Assembly: GCA_946411695.1 (NCBI GenBank)
Contig: CAMKEX010000002.1
Location: 6,141-70,140 of the forward strand
Source: an uncultured Lachnospiraceae bacterium
Lineage (GTDB): Bacteria; Bacillota; Clostridia; Lachnospirales; Lachnospiraceae
DNA length: 64,000 nucleotides
Direction: 5' to 3'
Shown: one piece after another, positions 1 through 16,890 of the stretch
Position numbering within the stretch: the first letter of the stretch is position 1
Layout: each line of letters starts with the position of its first letter
Notes under the pieces: generated by a model
Told to the model about the DNA's origin: nothing
Seen by the model: the letters and a program-made list of their open reading frames with translations, nothing else
Database searches by the model: none
Position numbers and translations under genes: made by a program

Positions 1-735
1 CAGTGGGGCAACAAGGTTGACAACCTGATCGGCTATGAGATCCGCAGCTATGAAGGCATGTTCCTGGCCGGCTATGCCAGCGAGCTCCTCTCCAAGGACA
101 CAAATCCTGAGCTCGGCTTCTCCGCTTCCTTCAACGAGTTCTCCGTCCGCACCGCCATCAACGCCTATGCACTGGGTGCCCAGTACGCAAATCCCGAGGC
201 AACCGTGCGTGTCGCTTCCGCGGACAGCTGGTACGATATTGATAAAGAGACCCAGTGTGCTCAGTCCCTGATTGACGCCGGCATCAAGTACATGGGTATG
301 GAAGCTTCCTCCCCTGCTATTCCCGAGACCTGCCAGAAGAACGGCGCTTTTGTCGTCGGCTACCACAATGACATGTCCGCGCTGGCTCCCGAGGCAGTCC
401 TGGTCTCCCACATGTGGAATTTTGCACCCATTTTCAAGAACATTATGATCAATGCGGCCGAGGGCACAGCTTCCACCAGCGATTTCTATTACTGGGGCGG
501 CGACTGCTCCAAACTCTCCGACTTTGCCGCTTTCGTTCCCGAAGAAGTTGTCGCGGAAGTCACCGCTCTGCAGGAGAAGATCCAGTCCGGCGAAGTCCAG
601 GTCTTTGCGGGCGAGCTCAAGGACAATGCCGGCAACGTTCTGGTCGCTGACGGCGAAGTGATGTCGGATGAAGACATCATCTTCCAGAATTTCTTTGTGG
701 AAGGTGTCACCACATCCTGGAAGATCGGCGAATAA
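1..735 (+). CDS. BMP family ABC transporter substrate-binding protein (5' truncated by window edge)
   Basis: Frame 1 is open from base 1 (QWGNKVDNLIGYEIRSYEGMFLAGYA...). BMP/PnrA-like segments: 'AINAYALGAQYANPEATV', 'SWYDIDKETQCAQSLIDAG', 'VVGYHNDM'. Confidence 0.8.
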   Translation, partial: QWGNKVDNLIGYEIRSYEGMFLAGYASELLSKDTNPELGFSASFNEFSVRTAINAYALGAQYANPEATVRVASADSWYDIDKETQCAQSLIDAGIKYMGMEASSPAIPETCQKNGAFVVGYHNDMSALAPEAVLVSHMWNFAPIFKNIMINAAEGTASTSDFYYWGGDCSKLSDFAAFVPEEVVAEVTALQEKIQSGEVQVFAGELKDNAGNVLVADGEVMSDEDIIFQNFFVEGVTTSWKIGE

Positions 736-768
736 TCTGTATAACTGTTAATTTATAACGATAGGAGA

Positions 769-2154
769 ATGATCTGTATGGATACACGGAAGTTCCTGGA
801 TCTTTTTGAACGTGGAAAAACGGGAAAAAAGGTCGACAAAAGCGACTGGGACATGGACTATATCATCGATAATGTCATGGACCTGGTGGAAGAGTATGAG
901 TTTGACTGGGACAGAGAAGTCCTGATCCCGGAGGACGACGCTCTTTTTGCGGACATGTTCAAGGCAGCCAGGGAACTCCTGATCAGGACCGGTATTTACA
1001 ACATGACTACCGGCAGGATCATGCAGCTTTCGCCGGAGGAGATCGACGAGGGGCTTCGGAACATGAAGACCGAGCTGACCATGGGAGAGGGAAAAGATGC
1101 CTATACTCTTGTGGCGCGCAAGGTCGAGGACGAGCGTCCCCCCGCGATCTGGGCCGGCAATCCCGGCTGTCCCACACCGGAAAGGCTCTACTATCCGATC
1201 GTGGAGAGCGTGGCCAAAGAGCCGGTCATCGATCTTCTGACCTGCGGCTCCCTGGTGGACGTAGACGGTTACGGAGTCCAGAACGGAGAGCCCTCCGAGA
1301 TTTTTGCCGTCAGGCGTGAGATGGAATATCTGCACAGGGCGCTGGAAAAGGTCGGAAGACCCGGCATGGGCCTTCTGGCTGCCGAGAGTGCCGTGACGGA
1401 AGTCGGCGACCTGGCCGCCGTGGCGGAGCGCTGGCTCCGTCCCTGCGATTCCCACCTGGTGGCCCTCTTCAATGAACTGATCATGGACAACGGAAACCTG
1501 GTGCGGACAGCCAATTCCCTGGATTACGGCATGAAAAATGCCTCCCTGGCCTGCACTATGGTCGGCGGCCTGGGCGGCGACGCTCCGGGCAGCTGTATGA
1601 TCATGATCGCGTCCATCATGGCGGCCAACCTCTTCGCCGCTGCGGACTATCATCTGTGCCATCCCATCCATATCACGGATGTGGCCACCACAGCCCGCGG
1701 ATGCCTCTGGCTGCAGTCCGTGCTCTGCCAGACCTTTGCCAAGCATGCACCCGCCATCATCGTCTGTGACCTGTGGCCTACCAGCGGTGCCATGACCAAA
1801 GAACTTCTCTATGAAGTGGCGGCAAACTCCATCGTTGTCACCGTCAGCGGCGGCCATCTGGAAGGAATCGGCGCGGCCAACGGCCGCGTGCCCCACGGCA
1901 CCGGCCTGGAGTGCCGCCTCATGGGTCAAGTCGGCAAGGCGGTTGCCCGCATGAAACTGACACGGAGCAAAGCCAACGAGATCGTCCTGGCCCTTGTGGA
2001 CAAGTATGAACATGCTTTCAAGATGAAAGACGGAAATCCCGGCAAATGCTTCGACGAAGCATACAACATGGAGACAATCGAGCCCCTGCCCGAATGGCAG
2101 CAGATGTACGACGAGGTCGTTGAGGATCTCCGATCTTTGGGTCTGGAACTGTAA
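769..2154 (+). CDS. Monomethylamine methyltransferase MtmB-family protein, no in-frame amber codon
   Basis: 461 aa with GGAG RBS. 'VGRPGMGLLAAES' matches the MtmB Pyl segment 'AGRPGMGV-O-GPET'. 'TGLECRLMGQV' and 'GKCFDEAYNMETIEP' are also MtmB-like. Confidence 0.85.
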   Translation: MICMDTRKFLDLFERGKTGKKVDKSDWDMDYIIDNVMDLVEEYEFDWDREVLIPEDDALFADMFKAARELLIRTGIYNMTTGRIMQLSPEEIDEGLRNMKTELTMGEGKDAYTLVARKVEDERPPAIWAGNPGCPTPERLYYPIVESVAKEPVIDLLTCGSLVDVDGYGVQNGEPSEIFAVRREMEYLHRALEKVGRPGMGLLAAESAVTEVGDLAAVAERWLRPCDSHLVALFNELIMDNGNLVRTANSLDYGMKNASLACTMVGGLGGDAPGSCMIMIASIMAANLFAAADYHLCHPIHITDVATTARGCLWLQSVLCQTFAKHAPAIIVCDLWPTSGAMTKELLYEVAANSIVVTVSGGHLEGIGAANGRVPHGTGLECRLMGQVGKAVARMKLTRSKANEIVLALVDKYEHAFKMKDGNPGKCFDEAYNMETIEPLPEWQQMYDEVVEDLRSLGLEL

Positions 2155-2265: not shown

Positions 2266-2312
2266 AAAAAAACAGGCCCCTCTGCACGGAAAGTGCAGAG
2301 GGGCCTGTTTTT
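2266..2312. terminator. Bidirectional intrinsic terminator
   Basis: A-run, CAGGCCCCTCTGCAC-GGAAA-GTGCAGAGGGGCCTG, T-run; lies between convergent genes. Confidence 0.85.
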
Positions 2313-2325
2313 GATTCATAGACAT

Positions 2326-2649
2326 TTACAGACCTCTGAGGATTTTCAGATAATCCTGACGCTGATCTGTAATTGCATAGATTGTGACGATTTTTTCTGC
2401 TTCATTGATTTTGTAAAAGACCAGATCTTTTTCCAATATAAGTACTTTAAAGCCCTGCCGGCGCAGGACCATGTAGCGGGGATCTATGCCGGCATAAGGA
2501 TTTTCCGCAAGTATGGAAATTTTCCTCTCTATTCTGTCCAGTCTGTCCAATGCCGTTTCATTTCCTAATTTTTCCGCAATGAAGAGAACGATTTTCCGAA
2601 GGCAGGAATCGGCTGTTTCCGTTCTGAGTAAAGTATACAAGTTTCTCAT
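2326..2649 (-). CDS. RelE/ParE family toxin
   Basis: 107 aa; 'LRKIVLFIAE...RIERKISILAENPYAG...LVFYKINEAEKIVTIYAI..QRQDY'. Overlaps the antitoxin stop by 4 bp. Confidence 0.85.
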   Translation of the reverse strand: MRNLYTLLRTETADSCLRKIVLFIAEKLGNETALDRLDRIERKISILAENPYAGIDPRYMVLRRQGFKVLILEKDLVFYKINEAEKIVTIYAITDQRQDYLKILRGL

Positions 2650-2924
2650 CCCCCCTTTAACATTGCGCGCAGATCGTCAAAGGAGGTCTGCAGGGGAGCG
2701 ACTCTTTCGCTTCTGACATCTTCTTCAGCCTCTGCGAGGAGCTCAAGCAGTTCAAGGCGGGATTTCATCTGTAAATATTCTTCATAGCCAATGGAAACGG
2801 TGTCACCTCTCCCATTTACAGTGATGATGACGACCTCTCTCTCTTCCCGGCATTTTCTGGAGATCTCGCTGTAATGATTACGAAGATCTGCAGAGGGACG
2901 GATCGTCTCTTTGATCGAGATCAT
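2646..2924 (-). CDS. Phd/YefM family antitoxin
   Basis: 'IRPSADLRNHYSEISRKCREEREVVIITVNGRGDTVSIGYEEY'. ATG at 2924 has a GGAGGG RBS 6 nt upstream. Confidence 0.85.
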   Translation of the reverse strand: MISIKETIRPSADLRNHYSEISRKCREEREVVIITVNGRGDTVSIGYEEYLQMKSRLELLELLAEAEEDVRSERVAPLQTSFDDLRAMLKGG

Positions 2925-2966
2925 AGAATACCCTCCATTAAACAAGTGATGTGATTGCGTAGTCAT

Positions 2967-3007: not shown

Positions 3008-3892
3008 TTACCGCTTCAGACTCTTGTGGCTCTTGCGGTACTGGCCGGGAGAGGAGCCGACTTTTTTGACAAAGAGGTTGATGAGGCTTCCGCTGGAGGA
3101 ATATCCGACCTCCTCTGCAATCTCGGAAATCGACATGCTTGTCGTGAGCAGGAGGGTCTTGGCGTGCTCGATGCGGGTGTTGATCACATATTCCATGGGA
3201 GCGAAGCCGGTCTCCCGCTTGAACATATGGGAAAAATAGAAGGGGCTGAGTTTGGCGATCTCTGCCAGCTCCTCCAGGGTGATGGGCTTGCCGACATTGG
3301 CGCGGATGTATTCCACGGCGGCAGTGATGGGCAGTTCCTCCTTCTGCTCCTGGATGGAGGGAGAGAGAAGGATTTCGAACAGTTTGTAAATGCGCGCAGA
3401 GCTTTCAAACATGGTCTCCGCGTGGTTGTGCTCGTACAGATAGACCATATCCTGCAGCAGGATGTTGACACGCTCGTTGCGGCTGTCTCTGACAAAGCGC
3501 CCCTCTTCGTCCCGGTCCTCCCGGCGAAAGAGCCATCCGTGGAGATTGATGATGTGCTGCGTGATCTCGTGCGCGTTGGATCCCTCGTAATGCATATAGA
3601 GGAATTCCAGATTGTTCTCCGCGTGATAGTAGTGGGGCTCTGTGCAGTCCAGAAGAACGACGTCGCCCTCCCGGGCCTGCCGTTTCTCCCCGCGGTACTC
3701 CACATTGAGGATGCCCCTGCGCACATAGATGACCAGGAGAGGCGGGTAGGAATTCCTTTTCATATAGTAGCGCGAGGAACAGAAATAGTGCCCGCACCAG
3801 GTCGGGTAGAAATAGAGCTGTCTGGCAATATCCGGGGGTGTAAATGAAAAACAGATCGAATTTGGCAGTACGCCGATATCAACACTTTTCAC
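3008..3892 (-). CDS. AraC family transcriptional regulator, copy 1
   Basis: C-terminal AraC HTH 'ITLEELAEIAKLSPFYFSHMFKRETG...ISEIAEEVGY'. GTG start at 3892 chosen by colinearity with copy 2 (294 aa). Confidence 0.9.
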   Translation of the reverse strand: MKSVDIGVLPNSICFSFTPPDIARQLYFYPTWCGHYFCSSRYYMKRNSYPPLLVIYVRRGILNVEYRGEKRQAREGDVVLLDCTEPHYYHAENNLEFLYMHYEGSNAHEITQHIINLHGWLFRREDRDEEGRFVRDSRNERVNILLQDMVYLYEHNHAETMFESSARIYKLFEILLSPSIQEQKEELPITAAVEYIRANVGKPITLEELAEIAKLSPFYFSHMFKRETGFAPMEYVINTRIEHAKTLLLTTSMSISEIAEEVGYSSSGSLINLFVKKVGSSPGQYRKSHKSLKR

Positions 3893-4352
3893 AAAAAACC
3901 ACCTTTCTTTTTGGGGACAATCGACAAAAACTCCTTTTAAAACACTGATTTCTGCGAAAATACGCAGCCGGATTGATGAACTTTGAAGCAAGGTTGATGA
4001 CAAGCAAAATAGATGAATTTTTAAGCAAGTCTATCTATTTTACATCCATTATTTCAAGTATATACTAAGCACAGCAAAAAAACAAATCGGCAAACAAAAA
4101 AGGGAAATAAATGCTGAAAATAGATTCCCGAAAGGCCGGTCTTGTACATTTTTGCAGCGATAAAGCTCCATTTTCCGGAAAAAAGAGCAGCGTTACTTCA
4201 AAGAGCAGGAATTGACAATTTTATCAAACCAAAAATGAGTACCGGGTCTTTCGGGACCGATGAAAAACTGAAAAAAACAGGTGCAGCGAACGTAAGACCG
4301 GCACTGGAGAGGCCGGCATTAAAAAACCACATTTTTTAAAAGGAGATCAGAT

Positions 4353-5534
4353 ATGTATATCGGACAGAAAATCATCAAAAGGGCACCTTTCCGCTGGGGC
4401 ATCGTGGGCGGCGGCTCCACCAGTAACGTAGGCTACAAGCATCGCCTGGGCGCTATGCGCGACAACACATCCTTCGTCCTTACCGCAGCGGCATTCGACG
4501 TTGATTTTGAGCGCGGCAGACAGTTCGGCATCGACCTCTGCATGGATCCCGACCGTCTGTATCCCGATTACAAGACCATGTTCGAGGAAGAGGCAAAGCG
4601 CCCCGACGGCATCGAGGCAGTCGACATCGCGACCCCCAACTTCCTCCACTATGAAGCGACCAAGGCAGCCCTGGAAGCCGGCCTCCACGTCATCTGCGAG
4701 AAGCCCCTCTTCTTCGAAGTCGAGCAGGGCCTTGAGATCAAGAAGCTGGCCGAGGAAAAAGGCAAAGTCGTCTGCGTGACCTACGGCTTCTCCGGATTCG
4801 AACTCCTGCTGCAGATGCGCGCCATGATCGAGCGCGGCGACATCGGCAAGGTCAACATGATCGACCTGCGCTACGCACACGGCTTCGGCTGCGATCCCGA
4901 AGGCGACGTCAAGGCGGAAGGCCAGAAGTGGCGCGTGGATCCCAAGAAGGTCGGCCGTGCATTCGTCCTGGGCGACCTGTCCACACACACCTACTACATG
5001 TCCCAGCTGATCTGCCCTAATGAGAAGCTCAAACAGGTCCTCTGCGACCGCCAGGCTTTCGTCGGCTCCCGCTATCCCCTCGAGGACAACGCATACTGCC
5101 TGATGCGCTATGAGAGCGGCGCGGTCGGACGTATGTGGGCATCCGCAGTCAACGCGGGCGACCACTCCTCCCAGACCATCCGCATCGTCGGCTCCAAGGC
5201 TTCCCTGGAGTGGAACGACATGCATCCCGATGAGCTGCGCTACCAGGTACAGGGCAAGCCCGAGCAGATTCTGATCCGCTCCATGGATTACCTCTATCCC
5301 GAAGCCCTGGAAGACGAGAGACTGGGCGCCCTCCACTACACCGGCCTCATCGATTCCTGGTCCAACCTCTACAAGAGATTCGCGATCGCCATGGACGCCA
5401 AGGAGCGCGGCGACGAAGAGACCCTGAACAACCTCGTTTATCCCGATATCGACCACGGTATCGACGGCATCAAGTGGATCAATGCCTGTGCGGATTCCGC
5501 TGACGCCGGCGCTGTCTGGGTAGACGTGAACTGA
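4353..5534 (+). CDS. Gfo/Idh/MocA family oxidoreductase (inositol dehydrogenase-like), copy 1
   Basis: 'WGIVGGG', 'IATPNFLH', 'HVICEKPL', 'LGDLSTH'; AGGAG RBS. Confidence 0.9.
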   Translation: MYIGQKIIKRAPFRWGIVGGGSTSNVGYKHRLGAMRDNTSFVLTAAAFDVDFERGRQFGIDLCMDPDRLYPDYKTMFEEEAKRPDGIEAVDIATPNFLHYEATKAALEAGLHVICEKPLFFEVEQGLEIKKLAEEKGKVVCVTYGFSGFELLLQMRAMIERGDIGKVNMIDLRYAHGFGCDPEGDVKAEGQKWRVDPKKVGRAFVLGDLSTHTYYMSQLICPNEKLKQVLCDRQAFVGSRYPLEDNAYCLMRYESGAVGRMWASAVNAGDHSSQTIRIVGSKASLEWNDMHPDELRYQVQGKPEQILIRSMDYLYPEALEDERLGALHYTGLIDSWSNLYKRFAIAMDAKERGDEETLNNLVYPDIDHGIDGIKWINACADSADAGAVWVDVN

Positions 5535-5819: not shown

Positions 5820-6704
5820 TTAGCGCTTCAGGCTCTTGTGGTTCTTGCGGTACTGGCCGGGGGAAGATCCGACTTTTTTAACAAAGAGGTTGATGAGGCT
5901 TCCGCTGTTGGAATAGCCGACTTCCTCCGCAATCTCGGACACCGTCATGTTTGTCGTCAGAAGGAGAGTCTTGGCGCGCTCGATTCGGGTGTTGATCACA
6001 TACTCCAGGGGAGAGAAGCCTGTTTCGCGCTTGAACATATGGGAAAAGTAGTAGGGACTGAGCTGCGCTATGCCAGCCAGTTCTTCGAGGGTGATGGGCT
6101 TGCCGACATTGGCGCGGATATATTCCACGGCTGCAGTGATGGGCAGTTCCTCTTTCTGCTCCTGCCTTGTAGGAGATAAAAGAATCTCGAACAGCCTGTA
6201 GATGCGCATGGAACTTTCAAAGATTCCCTCCGCGTGACTGCGCTCATACAGATAGACCATATCCTGCAGCAGGATATTGACACGCTCGTTGCGGCTGTCC
6301 CGCACAAGATTTCCATCTGCGCCGCGGTTCTCTCCGCGAAGGATCCACCCGTGGAGATCGATGATTCTCTGCGTGATCTCGTGCGAGTTTGAACCTGAAT
6401 AGTGCATGTAAAGAAATTCCAGATTGTTCTCCGCGTGGTAGTAATGAGGCTCTGTGCAGTCCAGGAGAACGACGTCGCCTTCCTGCGCCTGTCGGATCTC
6501 TCCCCGGTATTCTACGTTGAGAACGCCTTTGCGTATGTATAGGACCAGAAGCGGCGGGTAGTGGTTTCTCCTCATAAAGTAGCGCGAAGAGCAGTAATAG
6601 TGACCGCACCAGGTTGGATAGAAGTAGAGTTTCCTTGCGATTTCCGGGGGTGTAAACGAAAAACAGATCGAATTTGGCAGAACACCGATGTCAACACTTT
6701 TCAC
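5820..6704 (-). CDS. AraC family transcriptional regulator, copy 2
   Basis: 294 aa, colinear with 3008-3892 but with many substitutions. Confidence 0.9.
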   Translation of the reverse strand: MKSVDIGVLPNSICFSFTPPEIARKLYFYPTWCGHYYCSSRYFMRRNHYPPLLVLYIRKGVLNVEYRGEIRQAQEGDVVLLDCTEPHYYHAENNLEFLYMHYSGSNSHEITQRIIDLHGWILRGENRGADGNLVRDSRNERVNILLQDMVYLYERSHAEGIFESSMRIYRLFEILLSPTRQEQKEELPITAAVEYIRANVGKPITLEELAGIAQLSPYYFSHMFKRETGFSPLEYVINTRIERAKTLLLTTNMTVSEIAEEVGYSNSGSLINLFVKKVGSSPGQYRKNHKSLKR

Positions 6705-7164
6705 AAAAAACCACCTTTCGATTTATGGAAATCAACAATAAATACCTTCAAAATTGTACACTTTGCAAAAAATATACAGCAGGATTAAATAATTATAAAG
6801 CAAGATTAATGAGAAGCAGGATTGATGAATTTTTAAGCAAATCCATCTATTTCGTCAAGATGGTTTCCATTATATACTAAGCCTAGCAAAAAAACAAATA
6901 GGCATGCAAAAGGGGGTAATATTTCATAAAAAAATATTCCTGTAACGCCAGTATTTGTGCATTTTTGCTTTGACAAGCTCAAATTTCCGGAAAAAAGAGC
7001 AGAGTTATTTCATGAGCAAGAACTGATAATTTTTTGTCAACAAAAAACAGGGACACGGTCCTGCGGGACCAATGACAAAGCAAGAAAACAGTAAAGCAAA
7101 CATGGCACAGAACCGGCTCGAAGCAGTCCGGCGCAAAATCAAATTTTCAAAAAGGAGATCAGAT

Positions 7165-8346
7165 ATGTATATCGGACAGAAAATCATCAAAAGGGCACCT
7201 TTCCGCTGGGGCATCGTGGGCGGCGGCTCCACCAGTAACGTAGGCTACAAGCATCGCCTGGGCGCTATGCGCGACAACACATCCTTCGTCCTTACCGCAG
7301 CGGCATTCGACGTTGATTTTGAGCGCGGCAGACAGTTCGGCATCGACCTCTGCATGGATCCCGACCGTCTGTATCCCGATTACAAGACCATGTTCGAGGA
7401 AGAGGCAAAGCGCCCCGACGGCATCGAGGCAGTCGACATCGCGACCCCCAACTTCCTCCACTATGAAGCGACCAAGGCAGCCCTGGAAGCCGGCCTCCAC
7501 GTCATCTGCGAGAAGCCCCTCTTCTTCGAAGTCGAGCAGGGCCTTGAGATCAAGAAGCTGGCCGAGGAAAAAGGCAAAGTCGTCTGCGTGACCTACGGCT
7601 TCTCCGGATTCGAACTCCTGCTGCAGATGCGCGCCATGATCGAGCGCGGCGACATCGGCAAGGTCAACATGATCGACCTGCGCTACGCACACGGCTTCGG
7701 CTGCGATCCCGAAGGCGACGTCAAGGCGGAAGGCCAGAAGTGGCGCGTGGATCCCAAGAAGGTCGGCCGTGCATTCGTCCTGGGCGACCTGTCCACACAC
7801 ACCTACTACATGTCCCAGCTGATCTGCCCTAATGAGAAGCTCAAACAGGTCCTCTGCGACCGCCAGGCTTTCGTCGGCTCCCGCTATCCCCTCGAGGACA
7901 ACGCATACTGCCTGATGCGCTATGAGAGCGGCGCGGTCGGACGTATGTGGGCATCCGCAGTCAACGCGGGCGACCACTCCTCCCAGACCATCCGCATCGT
8001 CGGCTCCAAGGCTTCCCTGGAGTGGAACGACATGCATCCCGATGAGCTGCGCTACCAGGTACAGGGCAAGCCCGAGCAGATTCTGATCCGCTCCATGGAT
8101 TACCTCTATCCCGAAGCCCTGGAAGACGAGAGACTGGGCGCCCTCCACTACACCGGCCTCATCGATTCCTGGTCCAACCTCTACAAGAGATTCGCGATCG
8201 CCATGGACGCCAAGGAGCGCGGCGACGAAGAGACCCTGAACAACCTCGTCTATCCCGATATCGACCACGGTATCGACGGCATCAAGTGGATCAATGCCTG
8301 CGCGGATTCCGCTGACGCCGGCGCTGTCTGGGTAGACGTGAACTAA
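7165..8346 (+). CDS. Gfo/Idh/MocA family oxidoreductase, copy 2
   Basis: Protein identical to 4353-5534; ATG at 7165 after AAAAGGAGATCAGAT. Confidence 0.9.
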   Translation: MYIGQKIIKRAPFRWGIVGGGSTSNVGYKHRLGAMRDNTSFVLTAAAFDVDFERGRQFGIDLCMDPDRLYPDYKTMFEEEAKRPDGIEAVDIATPNFLHYEATKAALEAGLHVICEKPLFFEVEQGLEIKKLAEEKGKVVCVTYGFSGFELLLQMRAMIERGDIGKVNMIDLRYAHGFGCDPEGDVKAEGQKWRVDPKKVGRAFVLGDLSTHTYYMSQLICPNEKLKQVLCDRQAFVGSRYPLEDNAYCLMRYESGAVGRMWASAVNAGDHSSQTIRIVGSKASLEWNDMHPDELRYQVQGKPEQILIRSMDYLYPEALEDERLGALHYTGLIDSWSNLYKRFAIAMDAKERGDEETLNNLVYPDIDHGIDGIKWINACADSADAGAVWVDVN

Positions 8347-8480: not shown

Positions 8481-8541
8481 GGAGACAGGGGACGGTTCTG
8501 TGTCTCCTGTCTGAGGAGACACAGAACCGTCCCCTGTCTCC
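8481..8541. repeat. REP-like palindrome, copy 2
   Basis: Perfect 28-bp inverted repeat: GGAGACAGGGGACGGTTCTGTGTCTCCT (8481-8508) and 8514-8541, with a 5-bp spacer. Confidence 0.9.
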
Positions 8542-8589
8542 CTCCTCCCCATTCCTACAAATCCCCACTCAGAAAAGGAGAATAAAATA

Positions 8590-9555
8590 ATGAAACTTTC
8601 TATCTGCACGGATGTTTTCGGAAAGATCCCTTTTACAGAAATGCTCGACAAGGTTGTCGCATACGGCCTTGATGCAATCGAGATGACCGCAGGCGGCTGG
8701 GGCGGCTGCAATTTCATCCCTTCCGCTGAGGAACTCATCAATGATGATGCAAAGCGCGAGGCATTCCTGGCCGAGATCACAAAGAGAGGCCTTGCCATCT
8801 CCGCACTTAACTGCTCCGGTAACCCCCTCATCGACACACCTATGGGCAAGATGCACTCCAAGACCATGCGCGACACCATGGTCCTGGCCGGCAAGATGGG
8901 CGTCGACACCGTCGTGACCATGTCCGGACTTCCCGCAGGAGCCCCCGGCGACAAGACCCCCAACTGGTTCGTCTCCACCATTTCCTGGCCTGAGTATGAA
9001 GGCTTCAACTACATGGCAGAAGGCGTCAAGTATCAGTGGAAAGTCGCAGGTGAGTGGTGGAAAGAGACCTGCCGCATCGCCAAGGAAGCAGGCGTCAAGA
9101 AGATCGCTATCGAGGAGTTCCCCGGAGCTCTGGTCCACAACGTCCGCACATTCAACCAGCTCTGCGAAGCGGTCGGCGAGGATTCCGATGTCCTGGGCCT
9201 CAACCTTGATCCCTCCCATCTGATGATCCAGGGCGCGGAGCCGATCGAAGCAGCATGGGCTCTGGGCGAAAAGATCTTCTATGTCCACGGCAAAGACGCC
9301 CGCATCGAGAAGCACAACGCCAACATCGACGGCATCCTTGAGAACCTCCCTGTCGAGTGCAGCGCACAGCGCAACTGGAACTATGTCGCAGTCGGCTGCG
9401 GCAGAGACCTGCAGTGGTGGAAAGAGTTCTTCTCTGTCTGCCATATGAACGGCTACGACGGCTATGTCTCCCTCGAGATGGAAGACCTGACCATGAGTGT
9501 CGGCGCCGGCCTGCAGACCTCCATCGATGCTCTTAAGGCGACTATCAGTCGCTGA
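8590..9555 (+). CDS. Sugar phosphate isomerase/epimerase (xylose isomerase-like TIM barrel)
   Basis: 'KIAIEE', 'LNLDPSHL', 'YVHGKD', 'VSLEMED' metal-binding pattern; AAGGAG RBS. Confidence 0.85.
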   Translation: MKLSICTDVFGKIPFTEMLDKVVAYGLDAIEMTAGGWGGCNFIPSAEELINDDAKREAFLAEITKRGLAISALNCSGNPLIDTPMGKMHSKTMRDTMVLAGKMGVDTVVTMSGLPAGAPGDKTPNWFVSTISWPEYEGFNYMAEGVKYQWKVAGEWWKETCRIAKEAGVKKIAIEEFPGALVHNVRTFNQLCEAVGEDSDVLGLNLDPSHLMIQGAEPIEAAWALGEKIFYVHGKDARIEKHNANIDGILENLPVECSAQRNWNYVAVGCGRDLQWWKEFFSVCHMNGYDGYVSLEMEDLTMSVGAGLQTSIDALKATISR

Positions 9556-9676
9556 TGCGACTGATCTCAGCCGCTGATACGGCTGATTCTCAGCCGGTAA
9601 GAATCTCCGGACTCAGATAACCGACAGAGTTTTTCTGTCCAGACGACTGACAGAGTGTTTCTGAAAGGAGCATTAA

Positions 9677-10597
9677 ATGAAAGTAGCATTTGACGTAGAT
9701 GTTCTCGCCAAGCAGATGAGCATCAAAGACATGGTCTACAAGGTGGCGGACTGGGGCTACAAATATATCGAGCAGTCCCCCCACCCCAGGATCAATCCCT
9801 TCTACAAACACCCCCTGTTCTCCAAGGAGTGTGAGGCGGAGTACCGCCAGGCTATGAAGGACACAGGCGTAGAGATTTCTTCCTTCATCGTTGTCTACCG
9901 CTGGTCCGGCCCCACTGAGGAGCAGAGACAGCACGCAGTAGCCAACTGGAAGAAGATCATCGAGATCGCCGTCAACATGGGCGTTCCGGTCATCAACACC
10001 GAATTCTCCGGCGATCCCAACCAGCAGGAGATCTGCAACGGCATGTGGTTCCGCTCCATGGAAGAGCTCCTTCCCATCATCGAGAAGGAAGGCCTCCGTG
10101 TCGAAGTGCAGTCCCACCCTTACGATTTCTGCGAGCTCAACGACGAGGCCTGCGATCTGGTCAAGTCCTTCCGCTCCCCCAACCTGGGCTATGTCTACAG
10201 CGCATCCCACGGTTTCTTCTATGACAACGGCAAGGGCGATGTCCGCCACATGCTCAAGTATGCCGGCGACGAACTGACCCACGTCCTCTTCGCGGACACT
10301 TACAACCAGACCAAGGACTGCCGTTACATCCTCAACCCGCCGTGGCTCAATGCCCGCGGCAAAGCGGATGTCACCATCCACCAGCACACCGCCATGGGCG
10401 AGGGCGAAGTGGACTTCCCCGGCATCTTCGAGACACTGCGCGAGATGGATTTCGCAAACAGGCAGCTGAAGGCTGACGCCCCCAAGGTAGGCGGCGACAC
10501 CATCGCATGCGTATCCTACTTCGGATTCCCGGAGAAGATGGACAAGCAGGCTCCCGAAGCCAGAGAGATCATCGAGAGAGAACTTCTGGGCAAGTGA
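9677..10597 (+). CDS. iolH: IolH-like sugar phosphate isomerase/epimerase
   Basis: 'GYKYIEQSP', 'YRWSGPTEEQRQHAVANWKKIIEIAV', 'HPYDF', 'FFYDNGKGDV', 'HVLFADT', 'VTIHQH' match B. subtilis IolH as recalled. Confidence 0.75.
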   Translation: MKVAFDVDVLAKQMSIKDMVYKVADWGYKYIEQSPHPRINPFYKHPLFSKECEAEYRQAMKDTGVEISSFIVVYRWSGPTEEQRQHAVANWKKIIEIAVNMGVPVINTEFSGDPNQQEICNGMWFRSMEELLPIIEKEGLRVEVQSHPYDFCELNDEACDLVKSFRSPNLGYVYSASHGFFYDNGKGDVRHMLKYAGDELTHVLFADTYNQTKDCRYILNPPWLNARGKADVTIHQHTAMGEGEVDFPGIFETLREMDFANRQLKADAPKVGGDTIACVSYFGFPEKMDKQAPEAREIIERELLGK

Positions 10598-11215
10598 TTT
10601 CCCGTCTTTTTACAGACGGCCGCATCTCCTGATCCCCTGCCGGCTGACGGCGGGGCCGACAAATGAAGAATGAATTTGTTGTTGAATGATTATTTTATTC
10701 ACAGCAATTCGTTACCTCCTATCCTGCCTGTTTATCGGGCAAGGCAGTTAAAGGGCGTTTTTCCCCGTTGGAATCCCTGTACCAATAGAATTTGGAAAAA
10801 CGCCCGGATTAACTGACCGGATAGAGACGGCAAGACTGCAGCCTGAAGGTGGATGACCCGTGAAGTGATGTGTGAAAAATGCGTGCGGGCCCTAAAAGAG
10901 TCTCGGTCAGTCTGCATTTTGCACAAAGAGCGTCTTGGGGAGAAAGTACACAAATGTGCAATCTGCTGATGCCGAAGTTCGGGGTTTTGCGAGTGAACGC
11001 GGTTTTATTCTCCGGAAAAAATGTGCGTGACCTTTCTTTTGAACTCTGTGCACACGATATGCGTGCAAAAATGCGTGCAAAATACAAAAAGAGACAAAAA
11101 CGCACACGGTACCGGTAACTTTGGTATAAGATACCGGTAACGCAAACGAAATGAAACGAGATTTTTTTGGGTAATATGCACCAAAAAGGCGTGCGGATTA
11201 TAGTAAAATTTACCT

Positions 11216-11245
11216 CTTGCGTGCACCTGCACGCAAGGGTATAAT
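11216..11245 (+). promoter_or_regulatory. Promoter of the sugar ABC operon with a palindromic operator between -35 and -10
   Basis: TTGCGT(11217-11222)-N17-TATAAT(11240-11245); perfect inverted repeat CTTGCGTGCA-cc-TGCACGCAAG (11216-11237). Confidence 0.75.
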
Positions 11246-11305
11246 TTGAGATAACCAATCATTGGCAGGCTAAATAAGTCTGCCCAAAATCAAGGAGGGT
11301 ACACT

Positions 11306-12343
11306 ATGAAAAAGATGAAACTGTTTGCCACACTGGCTGTTACTGCAGCCATGGTGCTCAGCCTGGCAGCTTGCGGCGGCGGCAGCTCTGCTGCTCCTGC
11401 AGCTTCCGATTCCGGCAGCACAGGCGGCGGCGCAGCAGCAGGCGGCGAGAAGATCACTCTGATCATGTCTCAGCGTGATGAGTTCCTGAGCTCCCTCGAG
11501 GCAGGCGCGAAGAAGGCTGCCGGCGAGCTCGGCGTCAACCTGGTAACACAGGATGCCAACCAGGACGAGTCCAAGCAGATCCAGTACGTTCAGGCTGCTG
11601 CAGCTGATGGCCAGAAGGCTATCATTGTTAACCCCATCAACCCTTCCGCATGCCAGTCCATTATTGACGCAGCAGGCGATATGAAGGTTGTCTTCGTTAA
11701 CCGTGTTCCGGATGACACTTCCATCCTGAACGAGAACGCTGTCTATGTCGGATCCGATGAGCATACCTCCGGTAAGTTCCAGGGCGACTTCCTTGCCAAG
11801 TATTTCAATGACAAGGGCCAGAAGGATATCAAGTACATCCTGCTCAGAGGTATTGAAGGCCAGACTTCCACAACTCTTCGTTCCGAGTCCGTTCTCCAGG
11901 CACTTGCCGACAACGGCATCAACGCAACCGAGACCTATGCAAAGAGCTGCCTGTATGACCGTACCGAGGCTCTGAACCAGATGGGCAACATCCTTGCAGA
12001 CGCTTCCAAGGAATTCGACTGCATCATCTGCAACAACGACTCCATGGCTCTTGGCGCAATCGAGGCCTGCACACAGGCTGGCAAGACCATCGATTTCCCG
12101 ATCGTCGGTATCGATGCTACAGCTGACGGCCGCCAGGCTATCAAGGACGGCACACTTGCTATGTCCGTATTCCAGGATCCCAACGGCCAGGGCGGCGGCG
12201 CAGTCGCAGCTGCACTGAACCTGATCAACGGCGATGCTCTTAACGCAAACACCAACTTCGAAGTTGACGAGACCGGATTCATCCTCTGGGTTCCTTTCGA
12301 AGAAGTTACTCCTGACAACGTAGCGGATTATGACAATCGGTAA
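11306..12343 (+). CDS. Sugar ABC transporter substrate-binding lipoprotein (RbsB/MglB-like)
   Basis: Lipobox LAAC, Peripla_BP-like 'ICNNDSMALGAIEA', 'IVGIDAT'. Confidence 0.9.
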   Translation: MKKMKLFATLAVTAAMVLSLAACGGGSSAAPAASDSGSTGGGAAAGGEKITLIMSQRDEFLSSLEAGAKKAAGELGVNLVTQDANQDESKQIQYVQAAAADGQKAIIVNPINPSACQSIIDAAGDMKVVFVNRVPDDTSILNENAVYVGSDEHTSGKFQGDFLAKYFNDKGQKDIKYILLRGIEGQTSTTLRSESVLQALADNGINATETYAKSCLYDRTEALNQMGNILADASKEFDCIICNNDSMALGAIEACTQAGKTIDFPIVGIDATADGRQAIKDGTLAMSVFQDPNGQGGGAVAAALNLINGDALNANTNFEVDETGFILWVPFEEVTPDNVADYDNR

Positions 12344-12503
12344 TATTTGCGTACCTGCACTGCAGCAAATGAGGTAACTGATCATTTTGCGGCAATACAA
12401 TAAACGCAGATAAATCAGGCGGTTGACTCCAAAACCATACAAGGTGGGTATCGGGTCTGTCCATCCGGTACCCACATTTTTATAAACGGGGAGGTAAAAC
12501 AAA

Positions 12504-14033
12504 TTGGCTGATGAATATATTCTGGAAATGCACGGGATATGTAAGTACTTTCCAGGTGTAAAGGCTCTTGACGGTGTTGAGCTCCAGGTCCGTCCCGGAA
12601 CTGTCCACACACTGATGGGAGAGAACGGCGCCGGAAAATCCACTCTGATGAAATGCCTGATCGGCATGCAGCCGGTCACTGCAGGAACCATTATTCACAA
12701 GGGCAAGGAAGTTCACTTCAAGAGCGTCCAGGACTCCATCCATGCAGGTATCACCATGATCCAGCAGGAGCTGTCCCCTGTCCTTGAGCGTACTGTCGCG
12801 GACAACCTCTGGCTTGGCCGCGAGCCCATGAAGAACAAATTCATGTGCGACAACAAGGCACTCTATACTGAGGCTGAGGCACTCTTCAAGAAACTCAACC
12901 TCGAAGTAGATGTCTATGCAAAGATGAAAGACCTGACGGTCGCGAAGCAGCAGATGGTCGAAATCGCGAAGGCCGTTTCCCATGATTCGAATATCGTTAT
13001 CATGGACGAGCCTACTTCCGCACTTACGGACGCAGAGGTCGAGGATCTCTTCCGTATCATTGCAGACCTGAAAGCAAAGAATGTCGCGATCATCTATATT
13101 TCCCATAAAATGGATGAGATCTTCCGCATCAGTGATGACATCACGGTCTTCCGTGACGGCACCTATGTGGGTACCGACCGCGCAGCAAATCTCAATAACG
13201 AGAAGCTGATCGAGATGATGGTCGGCCGTAAGATCACCAACATGTTCCCGAAGATTCCCTGCCCGATCGGCGATGTCATGTTCAAGGTCGAGAACCTCAA
13301 TTCGGGCAAGCAGGTCAAGAATGTTTCCTTCGAGGTCCGCAAGGGCGAGATCCTCGGATTCGCAGGTCTGGTCGGCGCCGGCCGTACCGAGACCATGGAG
13401 ACGATCTTCGGCATGCGCAAGAAAGACAGCGGCAGGATCTGGCTGAACGGCAAAGAGCTCAATATCAAGTCTCCCCGTGATGCCATCGACAACAAGATCG
13501 GTCTGCTGACCGAGGACCGCCGCGGCAACGGTATCTTCGGCCTGCTCTCCATTACGGACAACACGACAGTTGCCAACTGGGGTGCTTATGGTATGCCCAT
13601 GAACAACAAGCAGATGCTCAAGGATACGGAGGAGTACAACACCAAGCTCCGCACCAAGACTCCTACATGGGAGACCCGTATCATGAACCTGTCAGGCGGT
13701 AACCAGCAGAAGGTTCTGCTCGCAAGATGGCTTCTGACCAAGCCGGATCTCCTGATCGTTGACGAACCCACCAGAGGTATCGACGTCGGTGCCAAGTCCG
13801 AGATTCACGAGCTTCTGTCCAAGCTGGCAGGCGAAGGCAAGGCCATCATCGTGATCAGTTCCGAGATGCCTGAAGTCATGGGTATCTCTGACAGAATCGT
13901 TGTCATGCACGAAGGCGAGATGACCGGTGTTCTGAATCGTGACGAGTTCTCTCAGGAGCTGCTCATGAGATATGCAACCGGTGGTTCTGCAGTTGAAGAG
14001 CTGAAAAAACAGCAGGGCTCTTTAGAGTCATAA
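12504..14033 (+). CDS. Sugar ABC transporter ATP-binding protein (MglA/RbsA type)
   Basis: TTG start with GGAGG RBS; Walker A GENGAGKS, MDEPT, LSGGNQQK, VDEPTRGIDVG. Confidence 0.95.
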   Translation: MADEYILEMHGICKYFPGVKALDGVELQVRPGTVHTLMGENGAGKSTLMKCLIGMQPVTAGTIIHKGKEVHFKSVQDSIHAGITMIQQELSPVLERTVADNLWLGREPMKNKFMCDNKALYTEAEALFKKLNLEVDVYAKMKDLTVAKQQMVEIAKAVSHDSNIVIMDEPTSALTDAEVEDLFRIIADLKAKNVAIIYISHKMDEIFRISDDITVFRDGTYVGTDRAANLNNEKLIEMMVGRKITNMFPKIPCPIGDVMFKVENLNSGKQVKNVSFEVRKGEILGFAGLVGAGRTETMETIFGMRKKDSGRIWLNGKELNIKSPRDAIDNKIGLLTEDRRGNGIFGLLSITDNTTVANWGAYGMPMNNKQMLKDTEEYNTKLRTKTPTWETRIMNLSGGNQQKVLLARWLLTKPDLLIVDEPTRGIDVGAKSEIHELLSKLAGEGKAIIVISSEMPEVMGISDRIVVMHEGEMTGVLNRDEFSQELLMRYATGGSAVEELKKQQGSLES

Positions 14034-14052
14034 TCAGGGAGGGTAGAATCGA

Positions 14053-15039
14053 ATGAAGTCCAAAGCTGAGAAATCTCAATTTAGTAAGTTAATTTCCGAT
14101 AATGGTATCTGGGTGGTTCTGGTCGTTCTGATTATTGCCATTACCATCGTAAACCGCAACTTCTTTACACCGAACAACGCAGTCGCACTGCTGACCGGTG
14201 AAGCCGTCAAGGGCGTTATGACCTTCGGCGTTACTCTGGCAATCCTGTCCAAAGGTATCGACCTGTCCACAGGTTCCGTTGCTGCTCTGTCCGCAATCTG
14301 CTCTGCAGCACTCTGCCAGGCTTCCACTTCCAAACTGTGGGCCGGACTGCCCACCATGCCCGCGATCGTCGGTATCCTGGGCGGTATCTGCATCGGCCTG
14401 ATCGTCGGTTTTGCAAACGGCTGGATGGTTGCATACCTTCGTCTGCATCCCTTCATCGCTACTCTGGGTACACAGCTGATCTGCCGTGCGCTCTGCAAAC
14501 TGATCACTCCCGGTCCCGTTTCCAAACTGACTCCCGGCTTCCGTTTCCTGGGCAACGGCAAGGTTGGTCCTTTCCACATGATCGTAATCGTCATGATCAT
14601 CATGTTCATCATCCTGGCATTCATGCTGAAGATGACCAGATTTGGTAAGTCCGTCTATGCAGTCGGTGGTAATGATCAGGCAGCAAGAGTTGCCGGTATC
14701 AACGTTGAGCATACTCTGGTTAAGGTTTACATGTGGTGCTCCTTCTGCGCAGCTCTCGGCGGCGTCCTCCTTGCAGGCCGTTCCGACTCCGCAGACCCTG
14801 CTAACACAGGTCTGAACTACGAGCTGGATGCAATCGCAGCAGCAACCGTCGGTGGTACTTCCCAGACTGGTGGTATCTGCCGTCCCTCCGGTGTTATCGC
14901 CGGTATCCTGATCATGGGCGTTATCAACAACGGCATGGTCATGATGGGTGTCAACGACCAGATGACATTCATCGTCAAGGGTCTCATCATCATCGGATCC
15001 GTTGCATTCGATATGAGAAAGAACGCTGTCAAGAAATAA
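14053..15039 (+). CDS. Sugar ABC transporter permease
   Basis: 'GIDLSTG', 'PFIATLG', 'FGKSVYAVGGN', 'YELDAIAAATVGGTS'. Confidence 0.95.
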   Translation: MKSKAEKSQFSKLISDNGIWVVLVVLIIAITIVNRNFFTPNNAVALLTGEAVKGVMTFGVTLAILSKGIDLSTGSVAALSAICSAALCQASTSKLWAGLPTMPAIVGILGGICIGLIVGFANGWMVAYLRLHPFIATLGTQLICRALCKLITPGPVSKLTPGFRFLGNGKVGPFHMIVIVMIIMFIILAFMLKMTRFGKSVYAVGGNDQAARVAGINVEHTLVKVYMWCSFCAALGGVLLAGRSDSADPANTGLNYELDAIAAATVGGTSQTGGICRPSGVIAGILIMGVINNGMVMMGVNDQMTFIVKGLIIIGSVAFDMRKNAVKK

Positions 15040-15105
15040 TTGAATTTCAACTGACATTGTTAAACCCTGTTCGTCAATATACCTGTATAGCTGTATAGGA
15101 TGAGG

Positions 15106-15148
15106 CAGAGGGCAGAGGAAGACGCAGTCTTCTTCTGCCCTCTTTTTA
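15106..15148 (+). terminator. Intrinsic terminator of the ABC operon
   Basis: AGAGGGCAGAGGAAGAC-gca-GTCTTCTTCTGCCCTCT-TTTT. Confidence 0.75.
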
Positions 15149-15314
15149 TGTGCAGCAGTCCGGCTGGTGTGATCGGGCAGATGTTGGAGCAGTAAAAAAG
15201 AAAAGGCAGCCCCGCGGGACTGCCTTTTACAATTGCGTTTTTATTCTTCATGGCACGGGACTTGCAGGCGATGAAGAAAAAATATGCGCTGCCTTGCTGC
15301 ATCCGAAAGGGTCT

Positions 15315-16406
15315 TCAGGTATGCAGGGAGGAGATAGCTTTTACCTGCTGGAACTGCCTGGTGAATTCGGATGACAGAGAGAAATGGTAATTGTATGCAT
15401 TGATGATGCGAATATCGGTATAGTAGTATTCCTGATCCGGTTCTCTTTTGTTGTAGTGCCATAGAAAGAGTAAATACAGGGACATAAATCCCTGTCCGAA
15501 TCCATCGTCGTCAATAACATAGTCGATTGTCCGGTCCAGAATATCTTCACTCCGGCAGGCGGCCAGGTCGTGCAGGATCAGATGAATATTCGAAGAGAGA
15601 GCCAGCTCTTTCAGGATGCTGCAGAGTTCGATGGAGCCTTCCCCGCAGAGATAGATGCCGTTTACATCCGGGTGCAGATCCAAAGAAGCCCTCGCCATTC
15701 GGGCCAGTGTCTCACGGCTGTTTCCGGTCTTTTTTTCTTCGATAATGTGTATGTCTTTATACCTGTGGGAAATAATGTCGCGGAATCCGCGGATCCGCTC
15801 AGTGTGGATCGTGGAATCCAGTCCGTAGTAGACAATAACGGAACCTTCGCCGCCCAGAAGATCTGCCATAACACTGGCTGCGGTCTGACCGCTGCCATAG
15901 GCGTTTTGTCCGATGAAAAAACTCCGGTGAGAACTGGGGACGTCGGAGTTCACAGTTACGACGTCAATATTTGCCTTTTTGCACGTGTCAATCTCACGGC
16001 GGAGTGCGGAGTCGTTATTTCCGACAAGAATGATGGCAGAGACTTTTTCTTCATATAACCGTCTCATGCCGGCGACAGCCTGATCGGAATCCATACCCTC
16101 AATCCGGATGATCTCTACTTCAATCCCATACTGCATGAATTCTTCCGTTGCAGTCATAATGCCGCGCAGAACTTCCTGCATAAACGGAGTTTCAATAAAT
16201 TGCAGAATGACACCGAATTTCCGACGATGCGAAGTCAGAGCGAGAGCACGGGCGTTGGCATTAGGAGTATAGCCCATTTCCTCTGCAATATGCCTGATCC
16301 GTTCAGCGACCTGGGGCTGAATACGTCCCCGGTTGTTGAGAGCGCGGTCTACTGTTCCTCTGGAGACGCCGGCTGCTCTGGCAATCTCGTTGAGTGTAAC
16401 TGCCAT
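15315..16406 (-). CDS. LacI family transcriptional regulator
   Basis: N-terminal 'VTLNEIARAAGVSRGTVDRALN...MGYTPNANARAL' plus sugar-binding domain. Confidence 0.92.
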   Translation of the reverse strand: MAVTLNEIARAAGVSRGTVDRALNNRGRIQPQVAERIRHIAEEMGYTPNANARALALTSHRRKFGVILQFIETPFMQEVLRGIMTATEEFMQYGIEVEIIRIEGMDSDQAVAGMRRLYEEKVSAIILVGNNDSALRREIDTCKKANIDVVTVNSDVPSSHRSFFIGQNAYGSGQTAASVMADLLGGEGSVIVYYGLDSTIHTERIRGFRDIISHRYKDIHIIEEKKTGNSRETLARMARASLDLHPDVNGIYLCGEGSIELCSILKELALSSNIHLILHDLAACRSEDILDRTIDYVIDDDGFGQGFMSLYLLFLWHYNKREPDQEYYYTDIRIINAYNYHFSLSSEFTRQFQQVKAISSLHT

Positions 16407-16890
16407 GGATGTTCTCCCTGTTATTGTTTACTGCGAAAAGGCAAGACTCGCCCGGGAGCCTTGCGCGTTTATCCCTTGACGGCAGCCACAGGTACTGCCC
16501 GATGAAGAATAAACCTGAAAGAGGCTGATAAAATGGTATATCTGCAAACCCGCCGGTGTACCTGACCTGCAGCTGCAGATGGGAAAAGGCGGGAAAGAGA
16601 TTTGCCTGTTTTTGACCTGAATTTGCTATCATTGTATCAAATTTAATACATACTTATCAAGAGATTAGATATTGGGATAGGAACGAATATTCGTTCTCAT
16701 ATGCGTCTGCGGCGGGCTGAGAGGATGAGGATTGACAGACGCGGGGGCGCATTCTACACTGTTATCGGTATGTCTGTAGGGGGATCTAAGCAGGACAGAC
16801 AGAGATGTCAGTACAATAGTTGTTGATGCCCCTCGACAGGGGGGACAGCCATTAGCCATATCGTAGACATGTAAGAGGACAAAAAGAATC

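Follow-up and report, generated by a model that had tools for sequence, protein, structure and literature searches.

A pyrrolysine-free MtmB homologue in a conserved import operon: a possible demethylase of methylated adenine

The window analysed here is a stretch of 64,000 nucleotides from an uncultured Lachnospiraceae bacterium (GenBank assembly GCA_946411695.1, contig CAMKEX010000002.1, positions 6,141 to 70,140). At its start lie the 3′ part of a gene for a BMP-family ATP-binding cassette (ABC) substrate-binding lipoprotein (Bmp) and, directly behind it, a gene for a homologue of the methanogen methylamine methyltransferase MtmB that lacks pyrrolysine (Pyl) (coordinates in Table 1). The latter occupies an open reading frame (ORF) at 769-2154 on the forward strand, which encodes 461 amino acids, ends in TAA and contains no in-frame TAG or TGA, in agreement with the preliminary description of this DNA, which had reported no internal TAG. 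The Pfam MtmB profile PF05369 (450 positions, cutoff 25 bits) aligns from its position 4 to its end with residues 10-459 at 324 bits and E 1.8e-96, far beyond chance, and the partial ORF upstream matches PF02608, so that both family assignments made from the sequence alone hold. Comparison by phmmer with Methanosarcina barkeri MtmB (1L2Q; E 2e-62) places the Pyl residue, written 'X' at position 202, on the second Leu of the segment GRPGMG-L-L-AAES, with no gap around it. This is the same Leu (Leu203 of the 461-residue product) that had been proposed to stand in the Pyl column.

The operon and its enzyme

The AGGAG upstream of the gene lies 10 nt from an ATG at 778 and 1 nt from the ATG at 769, and the homologues listed are nearly all 458-460 amino acids long. 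The exact 458-residue product that starts at 778 is on record on 7 metagenome contigs, and a look-up of recorded proteins gave no match for the 461-residue product. Because of this spacing, these lengths and the presence of the shorter product alone on record, ATG 778 is almost certainly the true start. The Pyl-column Leu would then be L200, and the gap to Bmp, whose TAA stop is at 733-735, would be 42 bp; the 33 bp given earlier (736-768) is correct as counted to ATG 769. Residue numbers below refer to the 458-residue product unless stated otherwise.

The window cuts off the upstream side of the operon. A contig that carries an identical enzyme (L001) has, on the same strand and in this order, genes for an ABC ATPase (550 amino acids, two ATPase domains), two BPD_transp_2 proteins, the complete Bmp (8546-9958, 470 amino acids) and the MtmB homologue. 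Roseburia-like, Blautia and other genomes carry this five-gene module between flanking genes that are unrelated, and the link between MtmB homologue and BMP transporter is a conserved operon in many genomes rather than a local accident. Contigs from bovine and sheep gut metatranscriptomes hold the locus and cross the Bmp-MtmB junction unbroken (for example 303-2242 and 565-1577), with a depth of 0 beyond 2320; such contigs are undirected and may include DNA, and they fit a single Bmp-MtmB transcript. A GC-rich hairpin downstream of the operon looks like a bidirectional intrinsic terminator that would serve both the operon and a convergent ParE/Phd gene pair.

Two features of the module stand beside these results. 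In Blautia (L014/L015, 5336-11383) the whole module lies inside the ribosomal cluster secY-adk-map-infA ... rpsM-rpsK-rpsD-rpoA, just before an S4 leader (RF03140). The binding protein of the window lineage (as on L001) is about 90-100 residues longer at its N terminus than those of Roseburia-like and Blautia genomes (365-385 amino acids), and the extra part is probably a lipoprotein signal and linker.

An AlphaFold (AF2) model of the window protein was built from a 16-sequence alignment (pTM 0.84, mean pLDDT 77.8). Foldseek places MtmB closest to it (1L2Q; TM 0.89, E 4.5e-34), with the runners-up MttB and MtgB reaching a TM of only about 0.5; by this model the protein is a TIM barrel of the MtmB superfamily. 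It shares with M. barkeri MtmB (1L2Q, 1NTH; PF05369) the GRPGMG strand and a D-S-H motif at an identity of about 28-37%.

We collected 78 orthologues at 57-100% identity from species-representative genomes, which with the window protein make 79. This tight clade spans four phyla, its hosts being Lachnospiraceae, Blautia, Robinsoniella, Lactonifactor, Christensenellaceae, Oscillospiraceae, Vallitalea, Planctomycetota, Spirochaetota and Adiutrix-like Deltaproteobacteria; copies at 100% identity come from metagenome-assembled genomes of rumen Lachnospiraceae. At least 147 species in GTDB carry the clade, and its cultured carriers include Robinsoniella peoriensis, Lactonifactor longoviformis DSM 17459, Bilifractor porci, Blautia spp. 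and Vallitalea maricola. MtmB (EC 2.1.1.248) has the UAG-encoded Pyl202 together with Glu229 and Glu259, whereas all three columns are Leu in 79/79 orthologues. The two Glu residues presumably sit beside the pyrroline ring of MtmB; a literature search for their roles brought no confirmation. Six further residues are invariant throughout the clade (C156, C294, H295, C330, D331 and H360), where MtmB has N158, D296, G297, N332, Q333 and E362. In the model, the invariant Leu and Cys/His/Asp residues fall in, or just past, the eight predicted barrel strands; Pyl202 of MtmB is on a strand at the centre of the barrel (PMC9842639).

In a library of representatives at 50% identity the MtmB superfamily comprises 795 members, 173 of them at E <=1e-30, and the clade amounts to approximately a single cluster: a lone full-length representative reaches 54% identity, and the one that follows is no higher than 40%. 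Within the superfamily sample examined, the full Leu plus Cys/His/Asp signature is confined to the clade, and it differs from that of the Pyl-MtmB-like members P0277, P0296 and P0347. The nearest relatives (34-40% identity) retain His158, His297, Asp333 and His362 in MtmB numbering, and because of this retention we suspect that the Cys/His/Asp set may form a metal site.

Importers, adenine genes and the imported ligand

Neighbouring genes were called by a simple longest-ORF procedure that missed at least two BMP genes (L057 and L060), so that the counts of neighbours are lower bounds. A BMP-ABC module adjoins the MtmB homologue in at least 36 of the 78 loci, mostly upstream and in five downstream, and a 517-residue polytopic membrane protein is encoded directly downstream in 24. 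The two never occur together in a locus. At least 60/78 loci have one or the other, as do 41 of the 50 loci with full flanks. Spirochaete loci have an energy-coupling factor (ECF) importer instead (S component PF09819, a double ATPase and CbiQ), and an SNF symporter is found at two other loci. The constant arrangement is therefore one enzyme with one importer.

Searches of Pfam, NCBIfam and PDB sequences returned nothing for the 517-residue protein. A model of it shows the 7+7 fold, together with the pair of short intramembrane strands, that is known from SVCT1, UraA, UapA and SLC26; this comparison of folds, which are not nucleobase-specific, supports a 7+7 transporter of the NAT/SLC26 type. 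Public sources name the protein a xanthine/uracil permease or a member of the AGZA family, as source labels only. An AzgA/AdeP-type identity, suggested by a motif picked out by eye, was rejected after a profile of the 24 members scored -14 against Escherichia coli AdeP.

The best solved relatives of the binding protein are AtzT (6PI5; E 9e-36) and a Brucella protein (3S99; E 4e-31), whereas nucleoside-binding BMP proteins match it at about E 1e-4. AtzT binds guanine (110 nM) and adenine (2.5 uM) and leaves GTP unbound, and 3S99 was deposited with adenine modelled in its site (PMC6834077). The aromatic sandwich of AtzT (Tyr45/Trp194) is present as Trp or Phe followed by Trp in 36/37 module binding proteins, and Ser97 of AtzT is also kept in the 37. 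The module proteins differ from AtzT and 3S99 in their hydrogen-bonding residues: Glu165, Asn218 (or His) and Asn220 (or Asp), which bond guanine or adenine, are not kept and are Ser, Glu and Ser instead. The near-invariant pocket changes relative to AtzT are E165->S, N169->A, N218->E, N220->S and T139->M, three of which introduce smaller side chains. These substitutions suggest a flat aromatic base as the ligand, probably one other than unmodified guanine or adenine. A BMP-type vitamin B6 transporter (NF047927, NF047930) was considered and rejected, with the binding protein at 50 bits against 400 and the ATPase at 451 against 670.

A canonical adenine deaminase gene (ade) adjoins the module in 16 loci, eight of them with one main importer type and eight with the other, and the order of the genes varies; against the TIGR01178 equivalog (cutoff 472.5) its products reach 594-621 bits. 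In 7 loci the module is next to a gene for adenine phosphoribosyltransferase (Apt), which, like the deaminase, uses free adenine as its substrate. Homologues of ade, apt and the 517-residue permease were not found in the window by tblastn.

The proposed import substrate is a purine base with a modification, and a methylated adenine is the likeliest form. N6-methyladenine ranks first, because no other methylated adenine is as frequent in DNA and RNA and because it would mimic the Pyl adduct of MtmB; 1-, 3- or N6,N6-methylated adenines are the alternatives. The preliminary description had guessed at an N-methylated purine or nucleoside. The purine half of that guess gains from AtzT and 3S99, adenine deaminase, Apt, a riboswitch (below) and the nucleobase-type importers. 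The nucleoside half loses ground: the binding protein belongs to the purine-base branch of AtzT and 3S99 and not to the nucleoside-type BMP proteins, and because linked adenine deaminase and Apt likewise act on the free base, a base is likelier than a nucleoside. As the substrate, the nucleoside of a methylated purine (N6-methyladenosine or 1-methyladenosine, for example) is improbable. The three smaller side chains could fit more than a methyl group, and characterised BMP proteins such as PnrA and BmpD do bind nucleosides. Against this, the binding protein is nearer to AtzT and 3S99 (E 1e-35) than to nucleoside binders (about 1e-4), GTP is not a ligand of AtzT, the fold of the alternative importer is that of nucleobase:cation symporters, the linked salvage enzymes use the free base, and no nucleoside phosphorylase or hydrolase recurs among the annotated neighbour clusters.

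Another reading concerns larger N6 substituents. AtzT accommodates N-ethyl and N-isopropyl amino-triazines, and the rumen, the habitat of this organism, contains plant N6-substituted adenines; the enzyme might thus remove a non-methyl group from adenine, such as a cytokinin-type N6-alkyl group from plant feed, or from another heterocycle. We consider this very improbable: members of the clade are also present in marine and sediment Planctomycetota, Spirochaetota and Vallitalea, a spread that speaks for a universal substrate, and the known enzymes of this fold transfer methyl only.

At the Vallitalea maricola locus (L082), whose flanks are unrelated, a promoter-like site is followed by a purine riboswitch (RF00167; 80 bits, E 2.5e-12), two terminator-like hairpins, ade, the MtmB homologue and the permease. 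The aptamer has GACUA at the specificity position, which is known to mark the guanine/hypoxanthine class of riboswitch. Hypoxanthine, the end product of adenine deamination, would then switch the operon off. Known riboswitches were not found upstream of the BMP-type modules in the window, L001, L002, L008, L011 and L014.

Spirochaete loci have a leader of their own. A conserved stretch of about 65-130 nt directly upstream of the MtmB homologue in Oceanispirochaeta and Spirochaeta, four close relatives in all, folds into a compact three-way junction with an invariant GGACGGGAAGCCUGUUC hairpin, a possible outer AUUCCGG/CCGGAAU stem and a variable third hairpin that has a few compensatory changes. 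The leader has no Rfam match, even at E 1. In these four close relatives it could be an unannotated riboswitch for the ligand of the pathway.

A reciprocal search with the permease revealed homologues in Clostridium paraputrificum, Desulfonispora and Desulfosediminicola (L098-L100) that have no MtmB gene adjacent and are preceded by two tandem deaminase-family genes; no riboswitch was found at these three loci. Paralogue B (577 amino acids) is canonical at 630 bits, whereas paralogue A (594 amino acids) is divergent and falls under the TIGR01178 cutoff at 390 bits. All 16 of the 16 deaminases linked to an MtmB homologue are B-type. Because the permease search shows A and B without MtmB, and the MtmB-linked deaminases are all B-type, the operons fall into two designs, [A + B + permease] and [MtmB homologue + B + importer]. 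Paralogue A occupies the slot that the MtmB homologue has in Vallitalea and is a candidate modified-adenine deaminase; similarity to the C-terminal structure of YerA does not discriminate between an adenine deaminase and an N6-methyladenine deaminase.

The deaminases bear on a further alternative, in which the purine genes merely supply or accompany a small methylamine as substrate. This would be either monomethylamine that a YerA-type deaminase splits off N6-methyladenine or, as with the Pyl-free MtmB protein MtqB, a quaternary amine. YerA and Bh0637 of the cog1001 group hydrolyse N6-methyladenine or N6-methyladenosine and free methylamine (PMC8643624, PMC12133300), and MtqB uses tetramethylammonium and choline and has slight monomethylamine activity (PMC13044021). 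This alternative is nevertheless distinctly improbable: the linked deaminases are canonical enzymes above the TIGR01178 cutoff rather than the divergent paralogue, they occur in 16/78 loci only whereas an importer is nearly always present, and no methylamine would be made at the loci linked to Apt. In addition, the Pyl and both Glu columns are Leu in a signature unlike that of Pyl-MtmB-like superfamily members, and no betaine- or choline-type transporter is linked.

The proposed reaction and the question of corrinoid partners

With a probability of roughly 0.45, the MtmB homologue demethylates the imported methylated adenine base to adenine through corrinoid partners encoded elsewhere. It would be the cytoplasmic enzyme of a five-gene uptake-and-processing operon and act as the substrate:corrinoid methyltransferase (MT1), methylating the Co(I) corrinoid that a partner protein carries and releasing adenine, which would be converted to hypoxanthine by adenine deaminase or to AMP by Apt. 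The CH3-NH-C(ring)=N arrangement of the substrate would mimic the methylamine-pyrrolysine adduct of MtmB. Because the substrate would already resemble this adduct, Pyl and both Glu residues could be replaced by Leu, making room for the purine ring. The Cys/His/Asp set may hold a metal for activation of the leaving group, comparable to the zinc of MtaB. This TIM-barrel methanol MT1, in which Cys/Glu-bound zinc replaces pyrrolysine as a Lewis acid, offers a possible analogy for the putative metal site that the invariant Cys, His and Asp residues suggest.

Methyltransferase-type corrinoid genes near the orthologues are few and are found at three loci. At one of these (L079) a 72%-identical orthologue is followed by genes for a URO-D-family methyltransferase, a divergent PocR-AraC regulator, an MtxC-type corrinoid protein and a RamA/RACo activase, and the MtmB homologue is the sole MT1 candidate on the contig. 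The second (L080) has a URO-D::B12-binding fusion 1.8 kb from the MtmB homologue, and at the third (L087) genes for a corrinoid protein and a URO-D-like protein are close by. These neighbours agree with an MT1 role, but they are thin. Partners that act in trans have a precedent in Eubacterium limosum, whose non-Pyl MttB enzymes share a corrinoid protein and a second methyltransferase (MT2) encoded elsewhere.

Several observations weigh against corrinoid-dependent demethylation of an adenine base. Genes for a corrinoid protein, MT2 and RamA are absent from the window and from the 10 kb upstream (tblastn, and Pfam on scanned ORFs), so that the partners for which the preliminary description had pointed upstream were looked for and do not appear within that distance. 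The same searches found no corrinoid, methyl-transfer or purine-catabolism genes elsewhere in the window. A methyltransferase-type corrinoid gene lies within 10 kb at only 3/78 loci, a fourth B12-binding match being MetH. URO-D-family proteins can serve as MT1 in O-demethylase systems, and the one at L079 could be such an enzyme, with the MtmB homologue a mere neighbour. A search for the aptamer core by regular expression across the loci returned the Vallitalea copy alone, so that the purine riboswitch is seen at one locus only. All residues of the methylamine methyltransferase activity of MtmB are replaced, and the chemistry may differ altogether. A three-protein corrinoid system is also heavy machinery for a salvage step that hydrolytic deaminases perform as well. 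Finally, characterised MT1 genes, MtqB included, usually adjoin the gene for their corrinoid protein (PMC13044021).

The scarcity of partners would be explained if the purine link is real and the enzyme is independent of corrinoid, a rebuilt metal-dependent barrel that removes or rearranges a substituent on an adenine derivative to yield adenine by hydrolysis, by a lyase reaction or by direct transfer to a thiol or folate. We think this unlikely, although several features fit it: 75/78 loci have no methyltransferase-type corrinoid gene in 10 kb and the window has none, the Pyl202, E229 and E259 columns are Leu, the residues C156, C294, H295, C330, D331 and H360 resemble a new metal site, the nearest relatives at 34-40% identity keep H158, H297, D333 and H362, and the corresponding slot of the alternative operon is held by a hydrolytic metal enzyme, the amidohydrolase-family paralogue. 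Against it stand the full MT2, corrinoid and RamA set at L079 beside a sole MT1 candidate, the corrinoid genes at L080 and L087, and the fold itself, whose solved structures are all corrinoid methyltransferases (MtmB at TM 0.89, then MttB and MtgB).

Demethylation of a methylated adenine through corrinoid would place the enzyme among relatives with a common logic. MtmB has its cognate MtmC adjacent, whereas the window homologue has none and lies in a purine-importer operon of a bacterium. MtqB of Methanococcoides methylutens Q3c, described in March 2026 as a tetramethylammonium/choline:corrinoid methyltransferase and the first non-Pyl MtmB with a demonstrated function, is a precedent for Pyl-free MtmB proteins as active MT1 enzymes on mimics of the Pyl adduct, and its authors leave other non-Pyl MtmB proteins as of 'unknown function' (PMC13044021). 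It is encoded next to MtqC, branches near the Pyl-containing MtmB proteins and has a conserved pocket of Met/Cys and aromatic residues, whereas the window clade has a signature unlike that of the Pyl-MtmB-like superfamily members and a purine in place of a quaternary-amine context. Mimicry of the adduct by a substrate has been argued before, in the case of MttB for glycine betaine and in that of MtqB for tetramethylammonium (PMC13044021). MtgB (glycine betaine), MtcB (carnitine) and MtpB (proline betaine) follow the same logic of Pyl loss with an adduct-like substrate, but the non-Pyl MttB family belongs to another superfamily (TM about 0.5), acts on quaternary amines and lacks the purine context.

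Oxygen-dependent dioxygenases are one known route of N-demethylation. The other described routes for methylated nucleobases are hydrolytic YerA-type deaminases (PMC8643624, PMC12133300). YerA/Bsu06560 and Bh0637 (cog1001) have the same substrate class as proposed here but are hydrolytic, release methylamine and have an amidohydrolase fold. The E. coli route for removal of nucleobase N-methyl groups is not established (PMC13296781, 2026), and anoxic N-demethylation of caffeine has isotope evidence with no enzyme attached (bioRxiv 10.64898/2026.01.06.697959). Our searches found no paper that ties the MtmB family to purines, BMP transporters or adenine deaminase; a gut methylamine gene inventory does not cover the window clade, and an ACS Catalysis paper on dimethylguanine hydrolases does not mention transporters.

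Non-Pyl MtmB homologues have been known for years, with MtqB the only demonstrated function among them. What is new here, and well supported, is the metabolic context of purine import and salvage; the fold and the idea of Pyl-free homologues acting on adduct-like substrates were known. The clade, which brings its own importer, is plentiful in rumen and gut communities and is transcribed there. In a wider scenario, which we regard as doubtful though a live prospect, anaerobes of several phyla would strip the methyl group from N6-methyladenine or other methylated adenines, derived from degraded DNA or RNA, onto corrinoid, salvage the adenine and feed the methyl group into one-carbon metabolism. 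If the proposal is true, the enzyme would be the first oxygen-independent nucleobase N-demethylase and its substrate the first purine for a corrinoid methyltransferase; the turnover of nucleic-acid modifications would be linked to purine salvage and acetogenic methyl-group metabolism in the gut, and nature would have provided a clean test of a substrate that mimics the pyrrolysine adduct.

Other features of the window and of the orthologous loci

Table 1 Positions of genes, residues and regulatory features, in window coordinates unless a locus is named
Feature	Position	Strand	Remarks
BMP-family ABC substrate-binding lipoprotein gene, 3′ part	1-735	+	last 244 codons and stop; PF02608, E 1.6e-27
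Binding-protein pocket codons	Met 58-60, Ser 142-144, Ala 154-156, Trp 229-231, Glu 301-303, Ser 307-309	+	from alignment columns
Shine-Dalgarno AGGAG for ATG 778	763-767	+	read from the sequence
Pyl-free MtmB-family gene	778-2154	+	458 amino acids, start almost certain; longest ORF begins at 769
Cys156 (MtmB Asn158)	1243-1245	+	clade-specific invariant
Pyl-column Leu	1375-1377	+	CTG; Leu203 in 461-residue, L200 in 458-residue numbering; invariant in 79/79 orthologues
Leu227 at MtmB Glu229 column	1456-1458	+	CTG; invariant in 79/79
Leu257 at MtmB Glu259 column	1546-1548	+	CTG; invariant in 79/79
Cys294	1657-1659	+	clade-specific invariant
His295	1660-1662	+	clade-specific invariant
Cys330	1765-1767	+	clade-specific invariant
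Asp331	1768-1770	+	clade-specific invariant
His360	1855-1857	+	clade-specific invariant
GC-rich hairpin, 20 bp, between A and T runs	2268-2312		terminator-like; scan lists minus strand; TTTTTG follows on plus
ParE toxin and Phd/YefM antitoxin, overlapping genes	2326-2966	-	convergent with the MtmB homologue; putative common terminator
Sugar/inositol-type cluster	8590-17829		two xylose-isomerase-like TIM barrels, Peripla_BP_4 sugar ABC system, probable LacI-type regulator, PfkB kinase
AKR+Fer4 gene	56654-57793; L001 47-1342		upstream in L031, L032, L035 and L046; downstream in L045/L008
Spirochaete leader	L089 ~9795-9875, L091 ~9805-9885, L093 ~9770-9850, L095 ~9775-9850		candidate riboswitch
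Tandem deaminases and 7+7 permease	L098 4439-9566, L099 4438-9566, L100 4445-9557		conserved in the three genomes

An aldo-keto reductase fused to a 4Fe-4S dicluster domain (AKR+Fer4) adjoins the MtmB homologue in five loci and could be an electron donor or a purine-ring reductase. On L001 its gene lies 8.5 kb from the MtmB homologue; the paralogue in the window is 55 kb away, too far for linkage.

The ParE/Phd pair that converges on the MtmB homologue is kept on L001 and L004, which encode an identical enzyme, and a NUDIX gene takes its place on L002. A 27-nt palindrome (GGAGACAGGGGACGGTTCTCTGTCTCC) occurs at 2171-2197, 2217-2243, 8481-8507 and 8515-8541, as inverted pairs after two operons, where 0 copies are expected by chance. 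In rumen metatranscriptome contigs its depth is 5-10x that of the flanks and it is joined to many different sequences; because of this depth and these junctions, we assign it to a high-copy REP-like intergenic repeat.

The window also contains a tandem duplication (3008-5534 and 5820-8346, with a period of 2812 nt) of an AraC-family regulator gene, the copies of which are 87% identical, and a GFO/IDH/MocA oxidoreductase gene, the copies of which are 99-100% identical with an N-terminal extension of the second ORF. The short-read contig L001 stops just inside this duplication, as repeats predict. Beyond it, 8590-17829 is a sugar/inositol-type catabolic cluster that is unrelated to the MtmB homologue.

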